Shown in pieces: positions 1,443 to 50,409 of a stretch of DNA of 64,000 nucleotides. Below the pieces are notes generated by a model. It was not told the origin of the DNA. It searched no databases and saw only the letters and a program-made list of their open reading frames with translations. Positions within the stretch are counted from its first letter, which is position 1. Each line of letters begins with the position of its first letter. Made by a program: the position numbers and the translations under genes. Source of the DNA: a virus; IMG/VR virus record IMGVR_UViG_3300036773_000096, positions 32,001 through 96,000 of that record; one strand, 5' to 3'.

Positions 1443-3185
1443 TTAGGCCGCCGCGTAGGTCTCGACGATGCTTTCCCTCACCTTGAGGTCCGCCCGACGC
1501 AGGCGCGCGTCACTGGCGTAGGCGTAGAGCAGCGCTTGGAAGCGCATACGGAACGTGGTGCCGGCCGCCGCCGTGACGGGGATGGTCACCGTCCAGGTGT
1601 TCTGGATGCCCGGCGCCTGCGGGAACGTCCCGTCCACCGTGGTCGCGGCGGCCTCCTGGTAGTCGGTGTCGGCCAGCGTGAACGAGCCTCCGCCGATGGA
1701 GTAGAACCAGCGAATCTGGAGCACCTGGCGATCAGGGTTGGCGCCGGAGTTCTGCTTAAAGAACAGCGCTTCGAGACGCATCTCGACCTCAAGCTGCGTG
1801 ATCGACGCGCTGCGCACGGTCATCGTGGGCCAGTCGTAGGTGAAGCTGCCGTTGCTGGCGACGAACTGGCCGTCGGGGTAGTCGCCGGGCACCACCCAGA
1901 TCTTCTTACTGGTGTGCAGTACCGGCTGGCGGACGTCGCGCAGGTGGTTGGGTTTGGTGCCGCTGCCCCGCCACGGGGCGTTGGATGACATCTGCCCGAT
2001 CGGGCTGACCTTCGCCACGATCACCTGATCCGGCGCCCCGGAGATGATCTCCGACTGGTACCAGCGAGACAGATCCCCGGTCCATGTCGCCGTCGACGAT
2101 GGGTAGGAGGCGAAGCGGGCGGCGTCGCGGGTGGGGTCACCGTAGTTGTTGAACTGGGTGCCCACCGTGGAACTCAGACCATTGGCCTGATCAATCCCGA
2201 CGAAGCCTGTCATGCCAGGGAACGGGTTGAACGGGGTGGAGCCCGACTGCGAGGCGGCGTTGGGGAACCACGCGAGACGCGCGGTGGCCAGCTTCACCAG
2301 GCTCGCCCCGACGTCCAGCTCACCGGTCCAATCAGTGGCGATCCGGCCGATGCTGATCAGGTTCGGGGCCACGGAGAAAATCGACGCCGCGTCGGAGCTG
2401 CCCGGCTGGAAACGGTTCGCTTGCCAGATCACCCGCGTCGGTGCGGACTCCTGCCCGTAGCCCAGCAGACCCGTGTTGATGGCCCCAGTGGCTTGCGGTG
2501 CCACCGACAGCCCCGCAGCCGTGCTGGGTGTGACCCCACCGAACGCGGCGCTCTGGGTGGACGTGAGCTGTCCCGTGCCCGAGATGGTCAACACGTTGCT
2601 GCCGCTGGAGTCGATCGCCCGCAGCAACTCCGTGACGTTGGTGTCGCCGGCCTTCAGCTCCAGCGCCCGCTCCACCCCGAACGCGGTGATCCGGGCTCGC
2701 ACGGCCGCCGGCAGCGAGTCCAGGGAACCGACCGCGAGACGGCCGATGGTGGGCTCGGCGGCGTTGCCCAGGATCAGGGCGTTGCGGGCCTTGACCGTGC
2801 CATCCCATGACGAGGTCAGTCCAGCGGTGGCGACGCTGGCGTGCTCAATACGCAGCGCCTCAGCGGTAACAGCCGGCGCGGTGTCCGGGGGGCGCACCAG
2901 TAGGCGTTCGGGGATCCAGGACTGCGCATGCCAGGAACCGCCCGCATCGGTGCGGTAGAGGGAGTAGGCGGTGACGCCGGAGCCCAAATCCAGGGTGCGC
3001 TGGAAGTACTCGGCGGACACCAGCGCGGGCGAGCCGACCGGCAGGGTGGCCCCGGCGGTGCGCTGATCGACCGCGACCCGCGTCTCTAAGTCCAGGAAGT
3101 CGGTGTTGAACCCGGTCCGCGAGGGAGAGTCGACGCCGCTAGACCACTGCTCCAGCCCCAGCCGGGGGGTGCGGGTGAGGGTCAC
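1443..3185 (-). CDS. Tail fibre / receptor-binding protein
   Basis: 580 aa, G/S/T-rich beta character, N-terminal TPRLGL baseplate-attachment-type motif, follows baseplate J and I. Confidence 0.75.
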   Translation of the reverse strand: MTLTRTPRLGLEQWSSGVDSPSRTGFNTDFLDLETRVAVDQRTAGATLPVGSPALVSAEYFQRTLDLGSGVTAYSLYRTDAGGSWHAQSWIPERLLVRPPDTAPAVTAEALRIEHASVATAGLTSSWDGTVKARNALILGNAAEPTIGRLAVGSLDSLPAAVRARITAFGVERALELKAGDTNVTELLRAIDSSGSNVLTISGTGQLTSTQSAAFGGVTPSTAAGLSVAPQATGAINTGLLGYGQESAPTRVIWQANRFQPGSSDAASIFSVAPNLISIGRIATDWTGELDVGASLVKLATARLAWFPNAASQSGSTPFNPFPGMTGFVGIDQANGLSSTVGTQFNNYGDPTRDAARFASYPSSTATWTGDLSRWYQSEIISGAPDQVIVAKVSPIGQMSSNAPWRGSGTKPNHLRDVRQPVLHTSKKIWVVPGDYPDGQFVASNGSFTYDWPTMTVRSASITQLEVEMRLEALFFKQNSGANPDRQVLQIRWFYSIGGGSFTLADTDYQEAAATTVDGTFPQAPGIQNTWTVTIPVTAAAGTTFRMRFQALLYAYASDARLRRADLKVRESIVETYAAA

Positions 3186-3403
3186 GGCGTGATCGTGTCA
3201 GGCACAGTGGGGTCCGACTGGGAGTGACACGCGGGCGGCAGGTCGCCGGGGGCAGGAACGCTCATGGCAGCCGGGCGGAATCCCCAGGACCCGCATGCTG
3301 GGCACGCGGGTCAATGACCCAGCCGAACGCACCTTAACCGCTGGACTATGAAGTGGCGGGGACGGCCTTGACCCCCCAGCGGCGACCTGGGCACACCCTA
3401 TGG

Positions 3404-6405: not shown

Positions 6406-7458
6406 TCAGAACTGCGCGACCGCCGCCAACAGCTTCACGGTGGCCACCACGGCGCCGGGCTGGCGCCCCCAGCCGCACCCGGTGGAGCCTCCGACGTTGT
6501 CACGGTTCGCCATCCGGGTGAAGGCATCCCAGGCCCAGCGGTGCTGCTCCAGCTGCGGTTCCCAGTGCGGATTGTTCGACGCGACCATGGCGCGGACGAA
6601 CCCGGCGGAGACGTGCACCGTTTCGGGCACGATCAGCTCGCCCATCGGGAGATAGAACTGGCGGGAGTACGGGGTGGGGTGGTGCCGGTCGCCGAAGGGG
6701 AGGTGGATCGCGTCGAGGATCTGACCGTGCGGCCAGTAGGTCCACATGGCGTTGGCCAGCTCCACCAGTGGTCCGGCGTCGGGTGGACTGATCAGCGGGG
6801 AGTCATTTTTGTTGCCGTAACAGAAGTGCAGGATCCAGGTGGAGTCTTTCGGGGACTGGGCGATGAACTCACACGCCCGCCGAGCGAATCTCTCCGCGAC
6901 CGCAGCCTGTAGCCGGCGGGGGGATTTCGCGACGGCAACGGTTTGCAGGGGGCCTTCCCACTGGTAGACGGCGTTGCCGAAGGTGTAGCCGTGGATGAGG
7001 CTGATTTCGCGCTGCGCGGCGGCGGCCTCAGCGTCGTAGTAGCGCATCGGGTTGGCCCAGAAGAACGCACCGACGTTCATGGGATCGGCGATGCCGGCCT
7101 GCGGGCGCACTGCGGTGCGCAGCCTGGGGATGGTCCGCATGATGGGCAGTGCGGAGGCGACCTCGGCGGCGTAGGGCAGAGGCAGGGAGTCGGCGGTGAC
7201 CTTCACGCCGTGGCGGGGAATGGCGCGCGGTGGGTCCAGTAGGGGGCGCAGGTTGCGGTCTTCACTCATGCGCGACCGGCGCAGGATCCGGTAGCGGGGG
7301 TCTTGCGCGCGCTGCTCAATGAACTCGATGACCCAGTGGTGGCGGCGCTCGAAGGGCAGCGTGGTGATGGTGTCGCCCAGCTCGTCGACGATGAGGTTCA
7401 TCGACGCTTCGATGTTGTCGGGACTGACGCTGCCGACGATGTGCGTTCGCAAGGCCAT
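6406..7458 (-). CDS. MetE/UROD-like TIM-barrel protein (moron)
   Basis: HIVGS N-terminus, ILHFCYG and terminal STGCGWGR resemble the metal-ligand pattern of the cobalamin-independent methionine synthase fold; own TACTTT-N7-ATG promoter. Confidence 0.55.
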   Translation of the reverse strand: MALRTHIVGSVSPDNIEASMNLIVDELGDTITTLPFERRHHWVIEFIEQRAQDPRYRILRRSRMSEDRNLRPLLDPPRAIPRHGVKVTADSLPLPYAAEVASALPIMRTIPRLRTAVRPQAGIADPMNVGAFFWANPMRYYDAEAAAAQREISLIHGYTFGNAVYQWEGPLQTVAVAKSPRRLQAAVAERFARRACEFIAQSPKDSTWILHFCYGNKNDSPLISPPDAGPLVELANAMWTYWPHGQILDAIHLPFGDRHHPTPYSRQFYLPMGELIVPETVHVSAGFVRAMVASNNPHWEPQLEQHRWAWDAFTRMANRDNVGGSTGCGWGRQPGAVVATVKLLAAVAQF

Positions 7459-7480: not shown

Positions 7481-8467
7481 TCAGGCCACTCTGGTCATCT
7501 TCAGTTTCGATCCGGCCTTAAACAGGGTGGTCGACGGGTCGGAGACGTTTTGGCTGTATTGGATGGCGAAGTTCCCGGCGGTGGCGGCGACGACGAGCCC
7601 CCCGGCGGGGCGCGAGGACATCATTCCTCCGCCAGTCTTGCCGCCCATGATGTAAGAAGGTCCGTCGAACACGTCGTGCCAGATGGCGGCGTTGCCGGCG
7701 GGGTCACCGGAGAACCACGGCGCGACGCGGGGCACGGCGGTGCCCGTCGGCACCGTGAAGGTGATCTTGCAGCCTGGGGTGGGCTGCACGTCGACAATAA
7801 CCAACGCCTCCCACTCGTAGGTCGCCCCCGCGAGCACCGCCATGATCAGGCTGGTCGCCTGCGGGGTGGTCTGGCTGACGATCCCAGTCGCGTCGGCGGC
7901 CTGGAAGACATACCGGGTCGCGCCGACGCGCGTGGTGTCCTCCAGCACCGTTGTCCGAGCGGCCAGCGCGGTCGCCGCCGCCTGGATGGCGGTGATGTTC
8001 GTTTCGGCGGTACCAACACGGGTGGTTAAGGCAGTGATCGCGGCGGCGTTGGCCGCGATGTTCGTCTCGTCAGTGGTCAACCGCACCCCGTGCGCGGCGA
8101 TCGCCACAGCGTTGGCGGTGGTCGCTGTCGTGTTGGCCGCGATGTTCGTCTCGTCGGTGCCAACACGGGTGGTCAGGGCGGTCGCCGCCGCCTGGATCGC
8201 GGTCAGGGTAGCGGTCAGGGTGGAGATCTCGGCGATGGTGGGCGCCCGGCCGGGGATGCGCCCGATCACCGCGAGGCTGTCGCGGGAGGTGGAGATCTGG
8301 GCGAGCAGCACGGCCTCACCGACAGCGAGGTTGGGCACGGCCGTCGGGTAGGGGCCCATCGGTGCGTTGGGCGCCAGTAAGGGGATTTCCACGGTGACCC
8401 CGTGGGTGTCGACAGCGACGACGATGCCCCGGTGCATCGTGCCGAAGTCGGCGAGCTGCATGCTCAT
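7481..8467 (-). CDS. Baseplate spike (gp5/gpV OB fold) with coiled coil and C-terminal domain
   Basis: HRGIVVAV, VGEAVLL and LAVIG N-terminal OB-fold pattern; repeated TDETNIAAN heptads. Confidence 0.72.
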   Translation of the reverse strand: MSMQLADFGTMHRGIVVAVDTHGVTVEIPLLAPNAPMGPYPTAVPNLAVGEAVLLAQISTSRDSLAVIGRIPGRAPTIAEISTLTATLTAIQAAATALTTRVGTDETNIAANTTATTANAVAIAAHGVRLTTDETNIAANAAAITALTTRVGTAETNITAIQAAATALAARTTVLEDTTRVGATRYVFQAADATGIVSQTTPQATSLIMAVLAGATYEWEALVIVDVQPTPGCKITFTVPTGTAVPRVAPWFSGDPAGNAAIWHDVFDGPSYIMGGKTGGGMMSSRPAGGLVVAATAGNFAIQYSQNVSDPSTTLFKAGSKLKMTRVA

Positions 8468-27485: not shown

Positions 27486-30400
27486 CTAGCCCACCGTGGC
27501 GGTCGCCCGGCCCTGCAATGCACCCGTGCCGCACGACGGGCACGGCGCCGTGCCGACCATCCCGTAGGCGGGGATCATGATGTCGTTGCCGCACTCCGGG
27601 CACGGGGCAACCTTTACGAGCATCCCGGATGCGTCCATGACGTAGCGGTAGCCCTCGATGACGGTGTCCTCGTAGGACTCCACATCTTCCGGCCCGTCGG
27701 TGTCGGGGCCGTCAGCGTCGGTGTCCGACGGTTTGGGGCCCTGCTGCGCGCGCAGCTTGAACTCGACACCCAGCCGAGCGGCGCGCAGCATCGTCAATTC
27801 ATCGACCAGCGACCCGGCCGTCTTCTCCTCGACCACGAGGTGACGCTTCCACACCGCGTCGATTTTCGCCCGCTCCGCGTCCGCCTCGGCCTGTCGCGCG
27901 GCCTCTTTCGCCTTGCGGATCCGCTCGCGCTCCTCATAGGGCTTGGAGTAGTCCGGGGCCTCGTAGCCGCCGCTGTAGCCGGGCTGAATGCGACGGTTGA
28001 TCGCCCAGTGCCCCTCGGCCCACGGGAAGTCCAGCGCCGCGAGGTCGTCGAGCAGGGCGTGAACGTTGTCGATGGCCCCGCGCGCATCATCGGGTCGGGG
28101 GATCAGCTCCCCGTCCGACGTCATGAACACTTCCAACTTGTTCCCGCTGCCCAGGGCGGCCAGAGTGCCATCCGGGGACGCGGCGGCATCCGGGGACGCG
28201 GCGGGGATGGAGAACCGCTTCAGGCGGTCCTTTTCCGGCCCGGCGCTGCCCCGGCCCATGAGGGCGACCTTCGCGCTTGCCTTCGTCCGTGCCGTGGCTA
28301 GACCCTTAGTCGCCTCATCCTGCTGCGGGCCGGCGTCGCCTTTCATGCCGGCGGCCTCCATGGCGGCCTGCAACCGTGCTGACTCGGCCGTGGCTTCCTT
28401 CAGCGCGGCGGCGTGAGCGAACGGCACCCCGATGCGGGCCTTCATCGTCGCGGCTTCGCTGCGCAGCGACGCGGCCCGGTCAACCTGAAGGTCGCGGCGG
28501 AACTCCAGGTTGTTCAGCGAGTTCGCCAGGGTGGTGTTGATGCCCGCGCCGAGCTTCTCGACGTCGCTGGGGCTGATGTGCACGATGTTGCCGGGCAGGC
28601 CCTCCCAGGACAGTGTCATCCCAAAGCGCTTCGTGCCGAGCTTGTCGTAGTGGACCTCCGGCTGACCCAGCAGCACGTGACCGCCGATGGTGCCCAGCGG
28701 CTTGGGCTTCGACCCGGCGTAGCCGTAGCGGCGTTCCCGGATCTGATCCTGCATCGCCGACTTCAGCAGGGTCGCCCCGTCGGCGCGGGTCCGGGCGGTG
28801 ATGCCGGCGACGTTGATGGAGTACTTGTCACCGCTGATGTCGGTGCGCTTGGCGATCGCCGCGTTGTAGGCGGCGGCGTCGGCGTCGGCCTGCTCCGCGT
28901 TGGCCCCGTAGGAGACCACGTCGCGCCGTAGGTTGGTTTGGGTACGGGCGTGCTGGCGCTCCAGGCGGGTGAGCTTGCCGACCGTGACGTCGACTTTCGC
29001 CTTGTCCATGAGTAGCGGGTTGCCGGTGGCCAGGGCCTTGACTTCGGCGTAGGACAGGGCGGTGTCGCCGACGTCTTCGATCTCTCGGACGTCGCCCATC
29101 TTGCCGCGCATGATCTGGTCGATGAACTTCTTTTTGCGCTCCAGGGTCTGCCACATATAGGCGTCGAAGCTGCCCTCGGTGACGTAGCGGAAGATCGCGA
29201 CCTCTTTGTTGGTGTTGCCCTGGCGCATGATTCGGCCGTCGCGCTGCTCCACATCGCTGGGGCGCCACGGGGCGTCGAGGTGGTGCAGCGCGACCGCGCG
29301 GCGCTGCACGTTGGTGCCGACACCCATTTTTTCCGTCGACCCCACCAGCACGGAGACCTGACCGTTGCGGGCGGCGGCGAACAGCTCCGCTTTCTCCCGG
29401 TCGTTTTTGGCCTCGTGCATGAACCGGATCGACTTCGGGTCCATGCCACGGGCGGCCAGCTCGTCACGCAGCTTCTGGTAGGCGTTCATGCCGGCACCGC
29501 CGGGTGTGCCCATGTCGCAGAACACGATCTGCATGCCGCCCGGCGGCGGGTCGTCGCCACCAGCGGGGTCGTTGATGTCTTTCGGGACGGGCCGGTCTTT
29601 GTTCGCATCCCAGATCTTGTAGATGTTGTCGGCCGCCTCTTCGATCTTGCCCGGCTGGTGCTTCTCTCCCACCAGCGCCATGCTCAGGGCGGCCTTGCGA
29701 CCATCACCGGAGATCTTGAGCATGTTGTCGTCTTCGGGCTTGACCTTGCCGTTGCGGACATCCTCGGCGCGCTGGCCCAACTCCTGGACGTAAGCCGACA
29801 ACTCCGGCGACGCCGGCACGATGACGTTCTGCACCCCACCTGTGGCCAGGTCCGGGGTCTTCAGGTTCAGGTCATCGGCCATCTTCACATCAGCGAACAG
29901 GTGGAACAATCGCAGCAACTCAGGAACGTTGCGGAACTTCGCGAAGCGCGTGGTCTGGCGGAACCCCGTACCCTCAGGCTTGAGTTCCATCTCATCAACG
30001 GTCTTGCCGAACGTCGCCGCCCACTGGTCGAATGAGTGAATACCGGCCTCGCGCAACGTCTCAGGGTCGAGGAACCGTTGCATGATGTATGCCTGGGTGA
30101 CCGTGTTGCGGATCGGGGTGCCCGTGGCGAACGTTCCCACCCGGCCCGACTTATTGTTCGCCCGCAGGTGCTCCATTTTCATGTGCAGGTCCGACGCCAT
30201 GTCCGATCCGGTCGCCCCCGCGCCCTGGATGTTGGAGATGGTGCGCAGGTTGGAGTACATATGCGCCTCGTCGACACACAGGTAGTCGATGCCGGTCTCC
30301 TCCCAGCTCACCCCGGCATCCTTAACCTTGTCCAGCTTCGCCTTCAGGGCCTCCTCAGCCTTGATCAGCGAGTTCTCCATTTTCTTAACGGTCTTCTCTT

Positions 30401-48360: not shown

Positions 48361-48531
48361 ATGAAGATCCGTTCCGCCCTCGCCGTGACCGCTGCCCTCG
48401 GTGGCGGTGCCGTGCTCACCGCCGCGCCCGCACTCGCCTGCGGTGACACTCCCGGCTTTTGCCCCAACCCGCCCACCAGCTCCAACCCGGACAACGGCGA
48501 CTACGGCGTCGGAGTCGGCGGAGACTGGTAG
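48361..48531 (+). CDS. 56-aa secreted peptide
   Basis: GGAAGGA RBS; MKIRSALAVTAALGGGAVLTAAPALA signal peptide then CGDTPGFCPNPPTSSNPDNGDYGVGVGGDW; below the ORF-track cutoff. Confidence 0.65.
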   Translation: MKIRSALAVTAALGGGAVLTAAPALACGDTPGFCPNPPTSSNPDNGDYGVGVGGDW

Positions 48532-48539
48532 ACAAGGAT

Positions 48540-48616
48540 TGGCCGCTAGCTCAACGGTAGAGCGGCTCGCACGGCGCCGTGCGGGGCGGCCCTGGGTTCG
48601 ACTCCCAGGCGGCCAA
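48540..48616 (+). ncRNA. tRNA-like RNA lacking a canonical anticodon loop
   Basis: Acceptor TGGCCGC/GCGGCCA; D arm GCTC-AACGGTA-GAGC; T arm CTGGG-TTCGACT-CCCAG; a 23-nt GC hairpin replaces the anticodon arm; no encoded CCA. Confidence 0.75.
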
Positions 48617-48617
48617 C

Positions 48618-49436
48618 TCAGTGGATCGTGGTCTCGAAACTGAGCACGTAGCTCGATGCCTCGATCACCGCGATCGAACACTCCACCGGCCGGTCCCCCG
48701 CGTAGAACACGCGCATGATCTCCCCCACGGGCCCCACCACATCCATACCCAGAACCTGACGCTCACGCGGCGTCGGGGGGCGAACCCTGACCTCCTCTAA
48801 GACGCGGGACACCACGAGCCCCACGGAGTACAGCTCCGCCAGGGTTCCCCCCGGCCAGGGCTGCCGATCCGGGTCAGCGACCGGGGTACCGGCCACTAGG
48901 TCTAAGGGAATCACTGACGTTTGCAGCTGCACCGTCACCCCGCGCACCTGCTTAATCAGCTCCCGCGCGAGCACCATCGCACCGGGCACCAGCTCCAGGC
49001 GCGCCGCGAAATCCTCACCGGCCGGCTCTTCGACGTAGTGGGCGAGCACGTTGTGCTCCGGCCACGCCACACCGTGATCCGTCGTGAACGCCGACGACAG
49101 CGGATGGCAGCCATCGTGGGCGCGGATCGCGTCCAGGGCCTCCTGGTATCGCTGCGTCGACATCCGGCGGACTTGCGGTGGGGTAGCCACTCGGGTGGGG
49201 CACCCCGAGCGCTTCACGATCCGGCCCTCAGCTACCAGGTCATCCATGGCGGTGCGCACCGTGGCGCGGGCAACGCCGGCCATTTCGGCGATCGCATGCT
49301 CACCGGGCAGGGTCTCACCTGCGGCAAGGGTGCCGTCGATGATCGCTCGACGTATCGCGTCGGCGACCTGACGGTGCAGCGGCGTGCCCACCTCGAAGCG
49401 GTTGACGCTCCGAAAGTGGACCCCAGTTAGTGGCAC
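48618..49436 (-). CDS. GntR/HutC-family regulator with UTRA domain (KorSA/TraR-like)
   Basis: QVADAIRRAI..GETLPGE..VARATVR HTH; WPGGTLAELYSVG..EEVRVRPPT.RE..L UTRA; TATGAT-N7-GTG start at 49436. Confidence 0.88.
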   Translation of the reverse strand: MPLTGVHFRSVNRFEVGTPLHRQVADAIRRAIIDGTLAAGETLPGEHAIAEMAGVARATVRTAMDDLVAEGRIVKRSGCPTRVATPPQVRRMSTQRYQEALDAIRAHDGCHPLSSAFTTDHGVAWPEHNVLAHYVEEPAGEDFAARLELVPGAMVLARELIKQVRGVTVQLQTSVIPLDLVAGTPVADPDRQPWPGGTLAELYSVGLVVSRVLEEVRVRPPTPRERQVLGMDVVGPVGEIMRVFYAGDRPVECSIAVIEASSYVLSFETTIH

Positions 49437-49462
49437 GCCACGAATCATAGCCGACCTGTCAG

Positions 49463-49482
49463 GCTGTCCAGCTGTCCGTACA
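49463..49482 (+). promoter_or_regulatory. Putative GntR operator, copy 2
   Basis: GCTGTCCAGCTGTCCGTACA between divergent -10 boxes (TATGAT on minus at 49444-49449, TACTGT on plus at 49490-49495). Confidence 0.68.
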
Positions 49483-49572
49483 CCCGGTGTACTGTGGTGA
49501 GACCACAAGACGTCGCCGGCCGGACGGGTGGAACGAACCCCGCCGGCCGGCGAAACCAACGAAGGGGGCGAC

Positions 49573-50409
49573 ATGGACGCAGACGCCAGGGCCCCCCTGT
49601 TCAACCGCTGGACGTGGGGCGCGGTCGGGCTCACCATCGCCCCGCTGATCCTCTGGGGCGCCGCCAGCGTGTTCCTGCTCGCCGTAGCGTGCGGCATTCC
49701 CGCCTACCTCGCGTGGATCCCGTCAGCGTCGACCACGGGCGTCATGCTCGTGTCGTCGATCTTCGCGATGACCGAAAGCCTCTCCGATGAGGTCCGCACC
49801 TACGCCCGCCGGATGGCCTACTCCGCGATCGGCCTGGACACCGTCGTGTCCGGCCTGCACCTCGCGCTGCCAGTGCACCTCAATCCCGCCGTGGGGTGGC
49901 TGGTGTTGATCGGCATGCTGCCCCCCCTGACTGGCGGCATCACCGGGCACATGATCGCCGCCGCTGTCCGTGAGCACCGCGCCACCGGCAAGGCGGCCGT
50001 CGCCGCCCAGCTCGCCGCCGAGCAAGCCCACCGCGACAGTGAGGCCGCCATCGCACGGGCGGAACGTCTCGCGACCATCGCCCGCGCCGAAGCCGACGCC
50101 AAACGCATCGCCGATGAGGCCGATGCCCGCAAGCGCGCCGCTGCGGCGGCCGTCGTCAACACGGCGCTGACCGGGCCGACGCTAGTCCGCGCCCCCGCGC
50201 CGAAGCCCCCGGCCAGGCGCACCGCGAAGCCGACCTTGCGTGATGCGGCGGTCGCCGAGCTGGTCCGTCGTCACCGCGCCGGCCAGAACATCGCGGCCAC
50301 GGTGGCCGCCGAGCTGGACATCGCGATCGGCGCCGGCAAGGGCTACTGCAAGAAGTTCCTGCCCGAAATCGTCGACCACGTGCTCACCGCTGAAAGGAGG
50401 ACCGCCTGA
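49573..50409 (+). CDS. DUF2637 / Spd-like membrane protein
   Basis: About 4 TM segments, IPAYLAWIP, then an Ala-rich coiled coil and a C-terminal helical domain. Confidence 0.65.
   Translation: MDADARAPLFNRWTWGAVGLTIAPLILWGAASVFLLAVACGIPAYLAWIPSASTTGVMLVSSIFAMTESLSDEVRTYARRMAYSAIGLDTVVSGLHLALPVHLNPAVGWLVLIGMLPPLTGGITGHMIAAAVREHRATGKAAVAAQLAAEQAHRDSEAAIARAERLATIARAEADAKRIADEADARKRAAAAAVVNTALTGPTLVRAPAPKPPARRTAKPTLRDAAVAELVRRHRAGQNIAATVAAELDIAIGAGKGYCKKFLPEIVDHVLTAERRTA

Follow-up and report, generated by a model that had tools for sequence, protein, structure and literature searches.

The window, the whole 64,000-nucleotide stretch of DNA analysed here, corresponds to positions 32001-96000 of a 120,179-bp viral record that has direct terminal repeats, is rated complete and has a G+C content of 67%. 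Pfam searches identify portal, MuF, capsid, terminase, tail sheath and baseplate J proteins, the equipment of a contractile-tailed, myovirus-type phage, together with helicases, a sortase, a cation-efflux protein and a GntR/FtsK-type transfer module. Judged from the portal protein, the closest isolated phages infect Gordonia, Brevibacterium and Streptomyces (~35% identity), and the source virus is a soil actinomycete phage. Pfam sweeps of 122 phage proteins revealed no integrase, resolvase, transposase or other recombinase family, the tyrosine and serine recombinase families PF00589 and PF07508 both being absent from the complete 120-kb genome. The same sweeps of the complete genome contained no partition or replication-initiator families and no tRNA-handling enzyme. 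ARAGORN finds a single tRNA-like gene in the whole 120-kb genome, at 48540-48616, and labels it ‘tRNA-???’.

This element lies between two genes. Upstream on the plus strand, a gene at 48361-48531 encodes a 56-residue secreted peptide, with a signal peptide ending in ALA followed by the invariant core CGDTPGFCPNPP. The element begins 8 nt past the stop codon of this gene, and the two are presumed to be co-transcribed. Downstream is a convergent gene for a GntR/UTRA regulator (48618-49697, minus strand), whose stop codon (48618-48620) is 1 nt from the element.

The element itself (48540-48616, plus strand) is 77 nt long including the discriminator A73, and is annotated here as a tRNA-Lys-derived, anticodon-less tRNA-like gene. 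Its acceptor stem pairs 48540-48546 (TGGCCGC) with 48609-48615 (GCGGCCA) through seven Watson-Crick pairs, U1-A72 first, and the 3' end consists of the discriminator A at 48616 and the trailer CTCAG, with no CCA encoded. A TA spacer leads from the 5' acceptor strand to the D arm (48549-48563), made up of a 4-bp stem, GCTC/GAGC, and a 7-nt loop, AACGGTA, which carries A14, G18, G19 and A21. A GG spacer separates the D arm from the arm in the anticodon position, which is followed by an unpaired stretch of six bases (G CGGCC) and then by the T arm (48592-48608), with stem CTGGG/CCCAG and loop TTCGACT. In standard numbering, pairs 28-42 to 31-39 and a 5-nt variable loop are in register and 27-43 is G.G. 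The conserved tRNA nucleotides U8, A14, G18, G19, A21, G53, T54, T55, C56, A58 and C61 are all present, and by sequence and fold the element has the 7/4/5/5 stems of a cloverleaf. The original prediction had described a 7-bp acceptor with U1-A72, a discriminator A, a canonical D arm, a TTCGA T loop, the lack of an encoded CCA and a distance of 1 nt from the convergent GntR stop, and all of this is borne out.

The “anticodon” arm (48566-48585, plus strand) is closed. Its strands, CTCGCACG (48566-48573) and CGTGCGGG (48578-48585), form an 8-bp stem capped by a GCGC tetraloop. The usual 7-nt anticodon loop is replaced by a 12-nt self-complementary sequence, CACGGCGCCGTG, which supplies four extra pairs and the GCGC loop and lies within the 14-nt perfect palindrome GCACGGCGCCGTGC (48569-48582) that makes up the tip of the arm. 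Neither U33 nor an accessible triplet in a 7-nt loop is found in the sequence or the fold. A loopless arm had been anticipated, and the 8-bp stem without a 7-nt loop stands; the symmetric 9/10-nt arm proposed with it does not, as G26 and G47 are unpaired and GCGC forms a tetraloop. In ViennaRNA the closed fold of the window element has an energy of -39.6 kcal/mol vs -28.9 kcal/mol for the fold drawn by ARAGORN, and in a relative the values are -42.6 and -28.2 kcal/mol. The six inner pairs of the closed arm each have a probability above 0.96, and those of the ARAGORN register 0.000.

The full ARAGORN label, ‘tRNA-??? (cggc)’, depends on forcing an 8-nt loop onto a stem of 5 bp that contains a U.U mismatch. 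This call speaks for a working decoder with an expanded loop, reading through a four-base anticodon CGGC or as a tRNA for Pro or Ala, but we find such a decoder scarcely credible. The required fold costs about 11-14 kcal/mol, its U.U mismatch becomes C.U in relatives, and U33 is missing; in addition, at 67% GC the genome contains GCCG far too often for it to act as a recoding signal, and the phage ORFs translate normally under table 11. The four-base anticodon reading is rejected on fold energy and is close to refuted. Since it has no anticodon loop the element cannot read codons; as far as primary sequence and computed fold can tell, decoding is excluded and the element is a non-decoding, tRNA-shaped RNA. 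At gathering level no Rfam family matches it. The best sub-threshold clan match is tRNA-Sec (19.2 bits vs a threshold of 47, E 0.24), and RF01684 (mascRNA) reaches 17 bits (E 0.65), also below threshold. No match spanning the element was obtained in phage and plasmid collections, no RNA run was listed as containing the locus, and the matches in the small-share runs X5 and X8 were all spurious, being GC-rich 38-nt stretches of other organisms. Such elements are mislabelled by one finder (ARAGORN, with a four-base anticodon) and missed by another (Rfam), and are probably under-counted in phage genomes.

The origin of the element can be traced through its intact arms. A covariance model built from it (R1) was run over 151 Actinomycetota genomes, where it matched only ordinary 71-75-nt tRNAs at no more than 60.7 bits; the copy in the 121.5-kb relative IMGVR_UViG_3300049324_000034 (hereafter G010; locus L004) scores 110 bits. 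Among the best-match loci fetched from this search, 15 of the 25 tRNAs best aligned to the element are tRNA-Lys, and the assignment is independent of loci L171, L175 and L186 (genomes G159, G093 and G131, which are flagged as unpublished). The tRNA-Lys of locus L156 reads GGGCCGC / GCTC..GAGC / CTGGG-TTCGAGT-CCCAG / GCGGCCC-A, such that six of the seven acceptor pairs are common to it and the element and the D and T stems are identical. The 5' half of the element is common to phage tRNA-Lys genes in IMG/VR, and two blocks of its 3' half, CTGGGTTCGA (10 nt) and TCCCAGGCGGCC (12 nt), are common to host tRNA-Lys genes. Bacterial and phage tRNA-Lys (CUU/UUU) are like the element in the GGCCGC acceptor core, the type of D stem and loop, the T stem, TTCGA, A73 and the absence of CCA. 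The element differs from them in having U1-A72 for G1-C72 and in that the entire anticodon stem-loop has been replaced, not merely mutated; the A73 of tRNA-Lys is retained. The UUU/CUU anticodon, which is the main identity element for LysRS, is absent. Judged by these shared arms and blocks, the element is a descendant of a tRNA-Lys-type gene. Actinophage tRNA-Lys genes serve tRNA-dependent lysogeny (PMC10865867), and the element differs from these in lacking an anticodon loop and in carrying U1-A72 in place of G1-C72. As the phage has no integrase, the element cannot be the complementing tRNA of such a lysogeny.

Several tRNA-Lys-like sequences elsewhere share parts of the element. A 117-kb AT-rich viral contig (L194, ~7503-7580) has a tRNA with the same U1-A72 acceptor, TGGCCGC/GCGGCCA-A, and a tRNA-Lys-like body, with a 7-nt loop, TCTATAA, that has C at position 33. 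At L206 (~7033-7068) and L211 (~7828-7863) the 5' half of a tRNA-Lys, identical to that of the element bar position 1, gives way to unrelated sequence, the pattern of a tRNA fragment that abuts a junction of integration.

Five contigs carry the element: the window, G010, a soil contig (Ga0208982_1006845; L131) and two Logan contigs from two further soil studies (X3 and X10). The peptide gene is more widely distributed, with at least 15 viral or metagenomic loci (L131-L145 and the window) in different large soil phages, and its products share a signal peptide ending in APALA, the CGDTPGFCPNPP core with two Cys residues and a variable tail that often ends in GDW or GDF. Behind the peptide gene of one family member, L142 (IMGVR_UViG_3300037069_002635), the slot of the element is occupied by canonical tRNA-Gln(CTG) and tRNA-Gln(TTG) genes (3137-3285), arranged back to back and starting 7 nt past the peptide stop codon; the second has discriminator A. 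This contig is syntenic to the window, with 78% identity for the portal, 56% for a sigma factor and 62% for GntR. At five further loci (L137, L138, L139, L141 and L144) the peptide gene is followed by plain GC hairpins or a classical terminator. No intrinsic terminator was found on either strand between 47700 and 49000 of the window; a hairpin is present there, but its 3' flank is G/C with no U tract. Viewed across these loci, the position of the element is that of a tRNA/terminator slot, ending a small predicted transcription unit that meets the GntR operon head-on.

The far side of the slot is variable. An 88-aa ORF lies between the element, or the tRNAs in L142, and GntR in G010, X10 and L142, and is absent from the window and L131, which on this comparison are the ones that have lost it. 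It is translationally coupled to GntR (L004 4080-4350; L142 3290-3560). In X3, 579 nt are found at the 3' junction of the element. The GntR ORF of the window is 359 codons long, and its first ~100 codons are in another frame or interrupted in G010 (L004 3001-4082) and L142 (3556-4625). The GntR and UTRA domains begin at residue 108 in the window, and the true start may be further downstream. A scan of viral contigs with a GntR profile matched only the two known relatives.

Across the five contigs the element shows two changes in 78 nt. Position 48558, in the D loop, carries T in three contigs (the window, X3, X10) and C in the other two (G010, L131); position 48567, in a pair of the long stem, is U in the window (a U.G pair) and C in G010 and L131 (a C-G pair). 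Both are structure-neutral, the first affecting a variable D-loop position and the second making U.G into C-G. Between the window and X10 the element has no changes and the 165 nt upstream have 22. At four-fold sites the window differs from G010 by 11% in GntR and 14.5% in the sigma gene, from L131 by 13.6% in GntR, and from either by 8.8% in the 180 nt adjoining the element; the peptide genes of the window and G010 differ at 30 of 171 positions (17.5%). The 5' limit of the conserved block is that of the tRNA, with differences at 48532 and 48536 and an insertion after 48538. At the other end, trailer bases 48617-48620 are unchanged and the insertion/deletion junction is at 48618-48620, just beyond the 3' end. 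Because the element is conserved amid divergence of 9-14% at four-fold sites and ~13-18% in the peptide gene, it appears to be selected and not decaying. Over the five contigs together, neutrality would predict ~10-20 changes vs the 2 seen, although the tree length is a rough estimate from few lineages. The pattern argues for purifying selection rather than a drifting pseudogene, and adds to the earlier argument that the intact arms tell against random decay. The homologues sought were recovered in so far as the loopless arm is conserved in all five contigs; compensatory changes were not, since the alignment contains only two distinct sequences, lends the fold no covariation support and offers a single U.G to C-G replacement.

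Could the element nevertheless be a functionless phage tRNA gene, recently disabled, that owes its conservation to shallow divergence or to a local sweep by recombination? The working tRNAs in the slot of L142 are in keeping with this, as is the fact that every carrier is a close relative, and the comparison of the window with G010 alone is only marginally significant (2/78 vs ~9% at adjacent four-fold sites). However, the deficit of changes over five contigs, on the same rough tree length, is against it, and the two changes that did occur hit a variable D-loop position and turned U.G into C-G. Moreover, the anticodon stem-loop has been swapped wholesale for a perfect palindrome with no erosion by point mutation, and the conserved block stops within a few nucleotides of the tRNA boundaries. 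A pseudogene of this sort is therefore considered doubtful. A close relative with a normal tRNA in this position had been named as the sign of a simple pseudogene, and L142 does have normal tRNAs there; these are tRNA-Gln genes and not orthologues, and the loopless copy is itself conserved, so the element is not a simple pseudogene.

The usual explanations of phage tRNA genes are codon supply, escape from anticodon nucleases and the complementation of a disrupted host tRNA. An element without an anticodon serves none of these roles, yet it is kept nearly base for base, and it probably has a job other than decoding. What might that job be? Our tentative preference, somewhat short of an even chance, is for a non-decoding, tRNA-derived RNA at the tail of the peptide transcript that would be cut by RNase P and would define or insulate the 3' end of that transcript. 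The element lies directly 3' of another transcript unit. The reading is suggested by an intact tRNA architecture in which the loop alone is abnormal and the elbow nucleotides are complete, by the tRNA-Gln genes of L142 or the hairpins that fill the same slot elsewhere, and by the edges of the conserved block, which match the tRNA boundaries within a few nucleotides. The tRNA-Lys-like body, the conservation over the five contigs and the lack of any tRNA-handling enzyme or integrase in the genome also count in its favour. In the mechanism we infer, the peptide transcript would end in the element as its 3' tail, and the element would fold into an L-shape through its acceptor, D and T arms. RNase P would then cut at +1, followed by 3' trimming; U-1 is retained in the three contigs read (the window, G010 and L131). 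Processing would set the 3' end of the peptide message and separate the peptide unit from the convergent GntR operon, and the closed GC hairpin would both abolish decoding and add a strong structural block. Three proposals had been made for the element (an elbow-mimicking decoy or ligand, a processing signal that matures the peptide mRNA and the scar of an att site), and of these the processing signal is the best supported by the context of the slot, 8 nt past a stop codon and filled by tRNAs or hairpins elsewhere; its mechanism is a conjecture from that context.

Several points weigh against processing. The cut would leave 8 nt past the stop codon with no protective hairpin, and the peptide mRNA would be expected to be destabilised. 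A role that depended solely on shape would predict compensatory changes; instead hardly a base varies, even at the hairpin tip and in the variable loop. Such near-total fixation would be explained no less well by a sequence-specific partner, be it for a role in trans or for a DNA site. The element also lacks a U-tract terminator. If the element is indeed a processing or insulation signal, it would amount to a tRNA gene turned into a punctuation mark.

A sequence-specific partner could be one that acts on a free RNA. The element would then be a trans-acting mimic of the tRNA-Lys body, released and probably CCA-tailed, that titrates or signals to a host or phage factor reading the tRNA body and is unusable by the ribosome. 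Candidate targets are RNase P, the CCA-adding enzyme, a nucleotidyltransferase toxin of the AbiE/MenT type that acts on the acceptor end and a defence nuclease directed at tRNA-Lys. Near-total conservation, extending to places where a purely structural signal could vary, is consistent with such a mimic, as are the specifically tRNA-Lys-like body with its retained A73 and the loop-defective tRNA-likes in the tRNA array of L146, another soil phage with the peptide family. Furthermore, anti-phage nucleases recurrently target tRNA-Lys, and phage tRNAs are known to counter them (PMC10264068, PMC11555353). However, no partner gene is linked to the element, the Pfam sweeps found no tRNA enzyme in the genome, and the element is a single copy with no recognisable promoter or terminator of its own. 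Known anticodon nucleases recognise the loop, which is missing here; immunity of the element to them is trivially true, and a loopless RNA would not bind enzymes that recognise the loop. On balance a trans-acting mimic is the main rival to processing, possible but rather unlikely. If it were correct, the element would represent a new kind of phage tRNA mimic. A broader version, which we consider unlikely, envisages a class of anticodon-less phage tRNAs in which the body of an isotype (here Lys) is kept and the arm is closed, acting as trans body mimics for a host factor that reads the acceptor or elbow. Further members of such a class would be tRNA-likes at L090, L094, L036 and L042 and both of those in L146.

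The partner could alternatively act on DNA, with the locus serving as an att-like site for a recombinase supplied in trans, as an insertion hot spot or as an operator consisting of the tRNA-like DNA or the 14-bp palindrome. Strict sequence conservation is what such a site would show, and gene content varies exactly at the 3' boundary, where 0, about 260 or 579 nt are inserted. The 14-bp palindrome occurs once more in the genome (0.07 expected) and the 10-nt and 12-nt blocks of the 3' half are common to host tRNA-Lys. The second palindrome copy, GCACGGCGCCGTGC at 27540-27553, is however within a coding region, the 3' end of the gene for a 3,563-aa head protein, and may be there by chance; the 12-mer core is likewise found twice in the genome vs 0.07 expected by chance. 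Conservation of the 5' half, D loop and T loop follows the needs of an RNA, on the strand where TTCGA and GG are read. Integrase, resolvase and transposase are all missing from the complete genome, and no attL/attR-type repeat is present: BLAST of the element against its own genome returned only itself and the 14-nt palindrome, with no second 3' half. An exact 21-mer search of 185,579 species genomes, with A72 fixed in the pattern, which could not detect host tRNA-Lys in this form, gave 7 chance matches and no cellular tRNA bearing the 3' strand of the element. A DNA-level function is regarded as very doubtful. The more specific suggestion that the element is the scar left at a tRNA att site by integration of the transfer module is not supported, as there is no tyrosine or serine recombinase and no second 3' half. 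The module is also old, being syntenic in L142, whose slot is filled by normal tRNAs.

Searches of open-access text turned up no account of a phage tRNA gene that lacks the anticodon, but tRNA-shaped RNAs that do not decode occur in other settings. MALAT1 mascRNA and the t-elements of plant mitochondria are tRNA-shaped, lie behind another transcript and are thought to be cut by RNase P or RNase Z to make the end of that transcript; they are not aminoacylated. The placement of the phage element behind a transcript is the same, but mascRNA and the t-elements are eukaryotic or organellar, with no homology to it at the Rfam threshold, and its own processing is a prediction. As a processing or insulation signal it would be their counterpart in a bacterial virus. 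The tRNA-Other of Bacillus cereus, which retains an anticodon loop, is also a tRNA-derived non-decoder, but it is chromosomal, sits beside a genomic island and is unrelated in sequence. It is described as a pseudo-tRNA with no role in translation that has a phenotype (PMC3399842). Another parallel is provided by tRNA-X and tRNA-X2 in the mitochondria of the eustigmatophyte alga Vischeria. These genes keep a fixed position, and their acceptor, D and T portions are conserved; certain strains have a shortened anticodon stem and lack the loop, and the study concludes that the genes are not standard decoders (preprint 10.64898/2026.03.28.715030). They are organellar with an anticodon arm that varies widely between strains, whereas the phage element has a fixed, extended 8-bp hairpin. 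The tRNA-like domain of tmRNA and the tRNA-like modules of the bacterial Y RNA YrlA (PMC4201824) likewise mimic the acceptor/T/D upper half without an anticodon. The element differs from tmRNA in that 3-70 is G-C and not G3.U70, and no tmRNA was called by ARAGORN. YrlA differs in its circularly permuted topology, in which the acceptor end is closed and the Ro-binding stem open, and in its need for Ro60; Pfam sweeps of the phage proteins contain no Ro60/TROVE domain. No Rfam match to the tmRNA or YrlA families was obtained for the element. YrlA, tmRNA, a dif/Xer site and a GntR operator were all discarded because of an unsuitable topology or type of sequence or the absence of partner genes.

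Other tRNA-likes with unusual anticodon arms were encountered in viral contigs. Three that resemble loopless tRNAs (L096, L109 and L083) were rejected, as ARAGORN assigns them a UCA anticodon on a long anticodon stem. The tRNA array of L146 (IMGVR_UViG_3300049434_000014), a 153-kb soil phage that has the peptide family, contains two defective tRNA-likes, at 1070-1140 and ~1262-1338; one folds as a clean cloverleaf whose loop, CACGGG, is 6 nt long, and the other combines an irregular acceptor with an 8-bp stem and a TAAC loop. On unrelated viral contigs, the tRNA-likes at L090 (14383-14461), L094 (3683-3761), L036 (~7022-7100) and L042 (~783-860) have anticodon arms with a 7-9-bp stem and a 3-4-nt loop, and are given as ‘tRNA-???’ or left without a call by ARAGORN.
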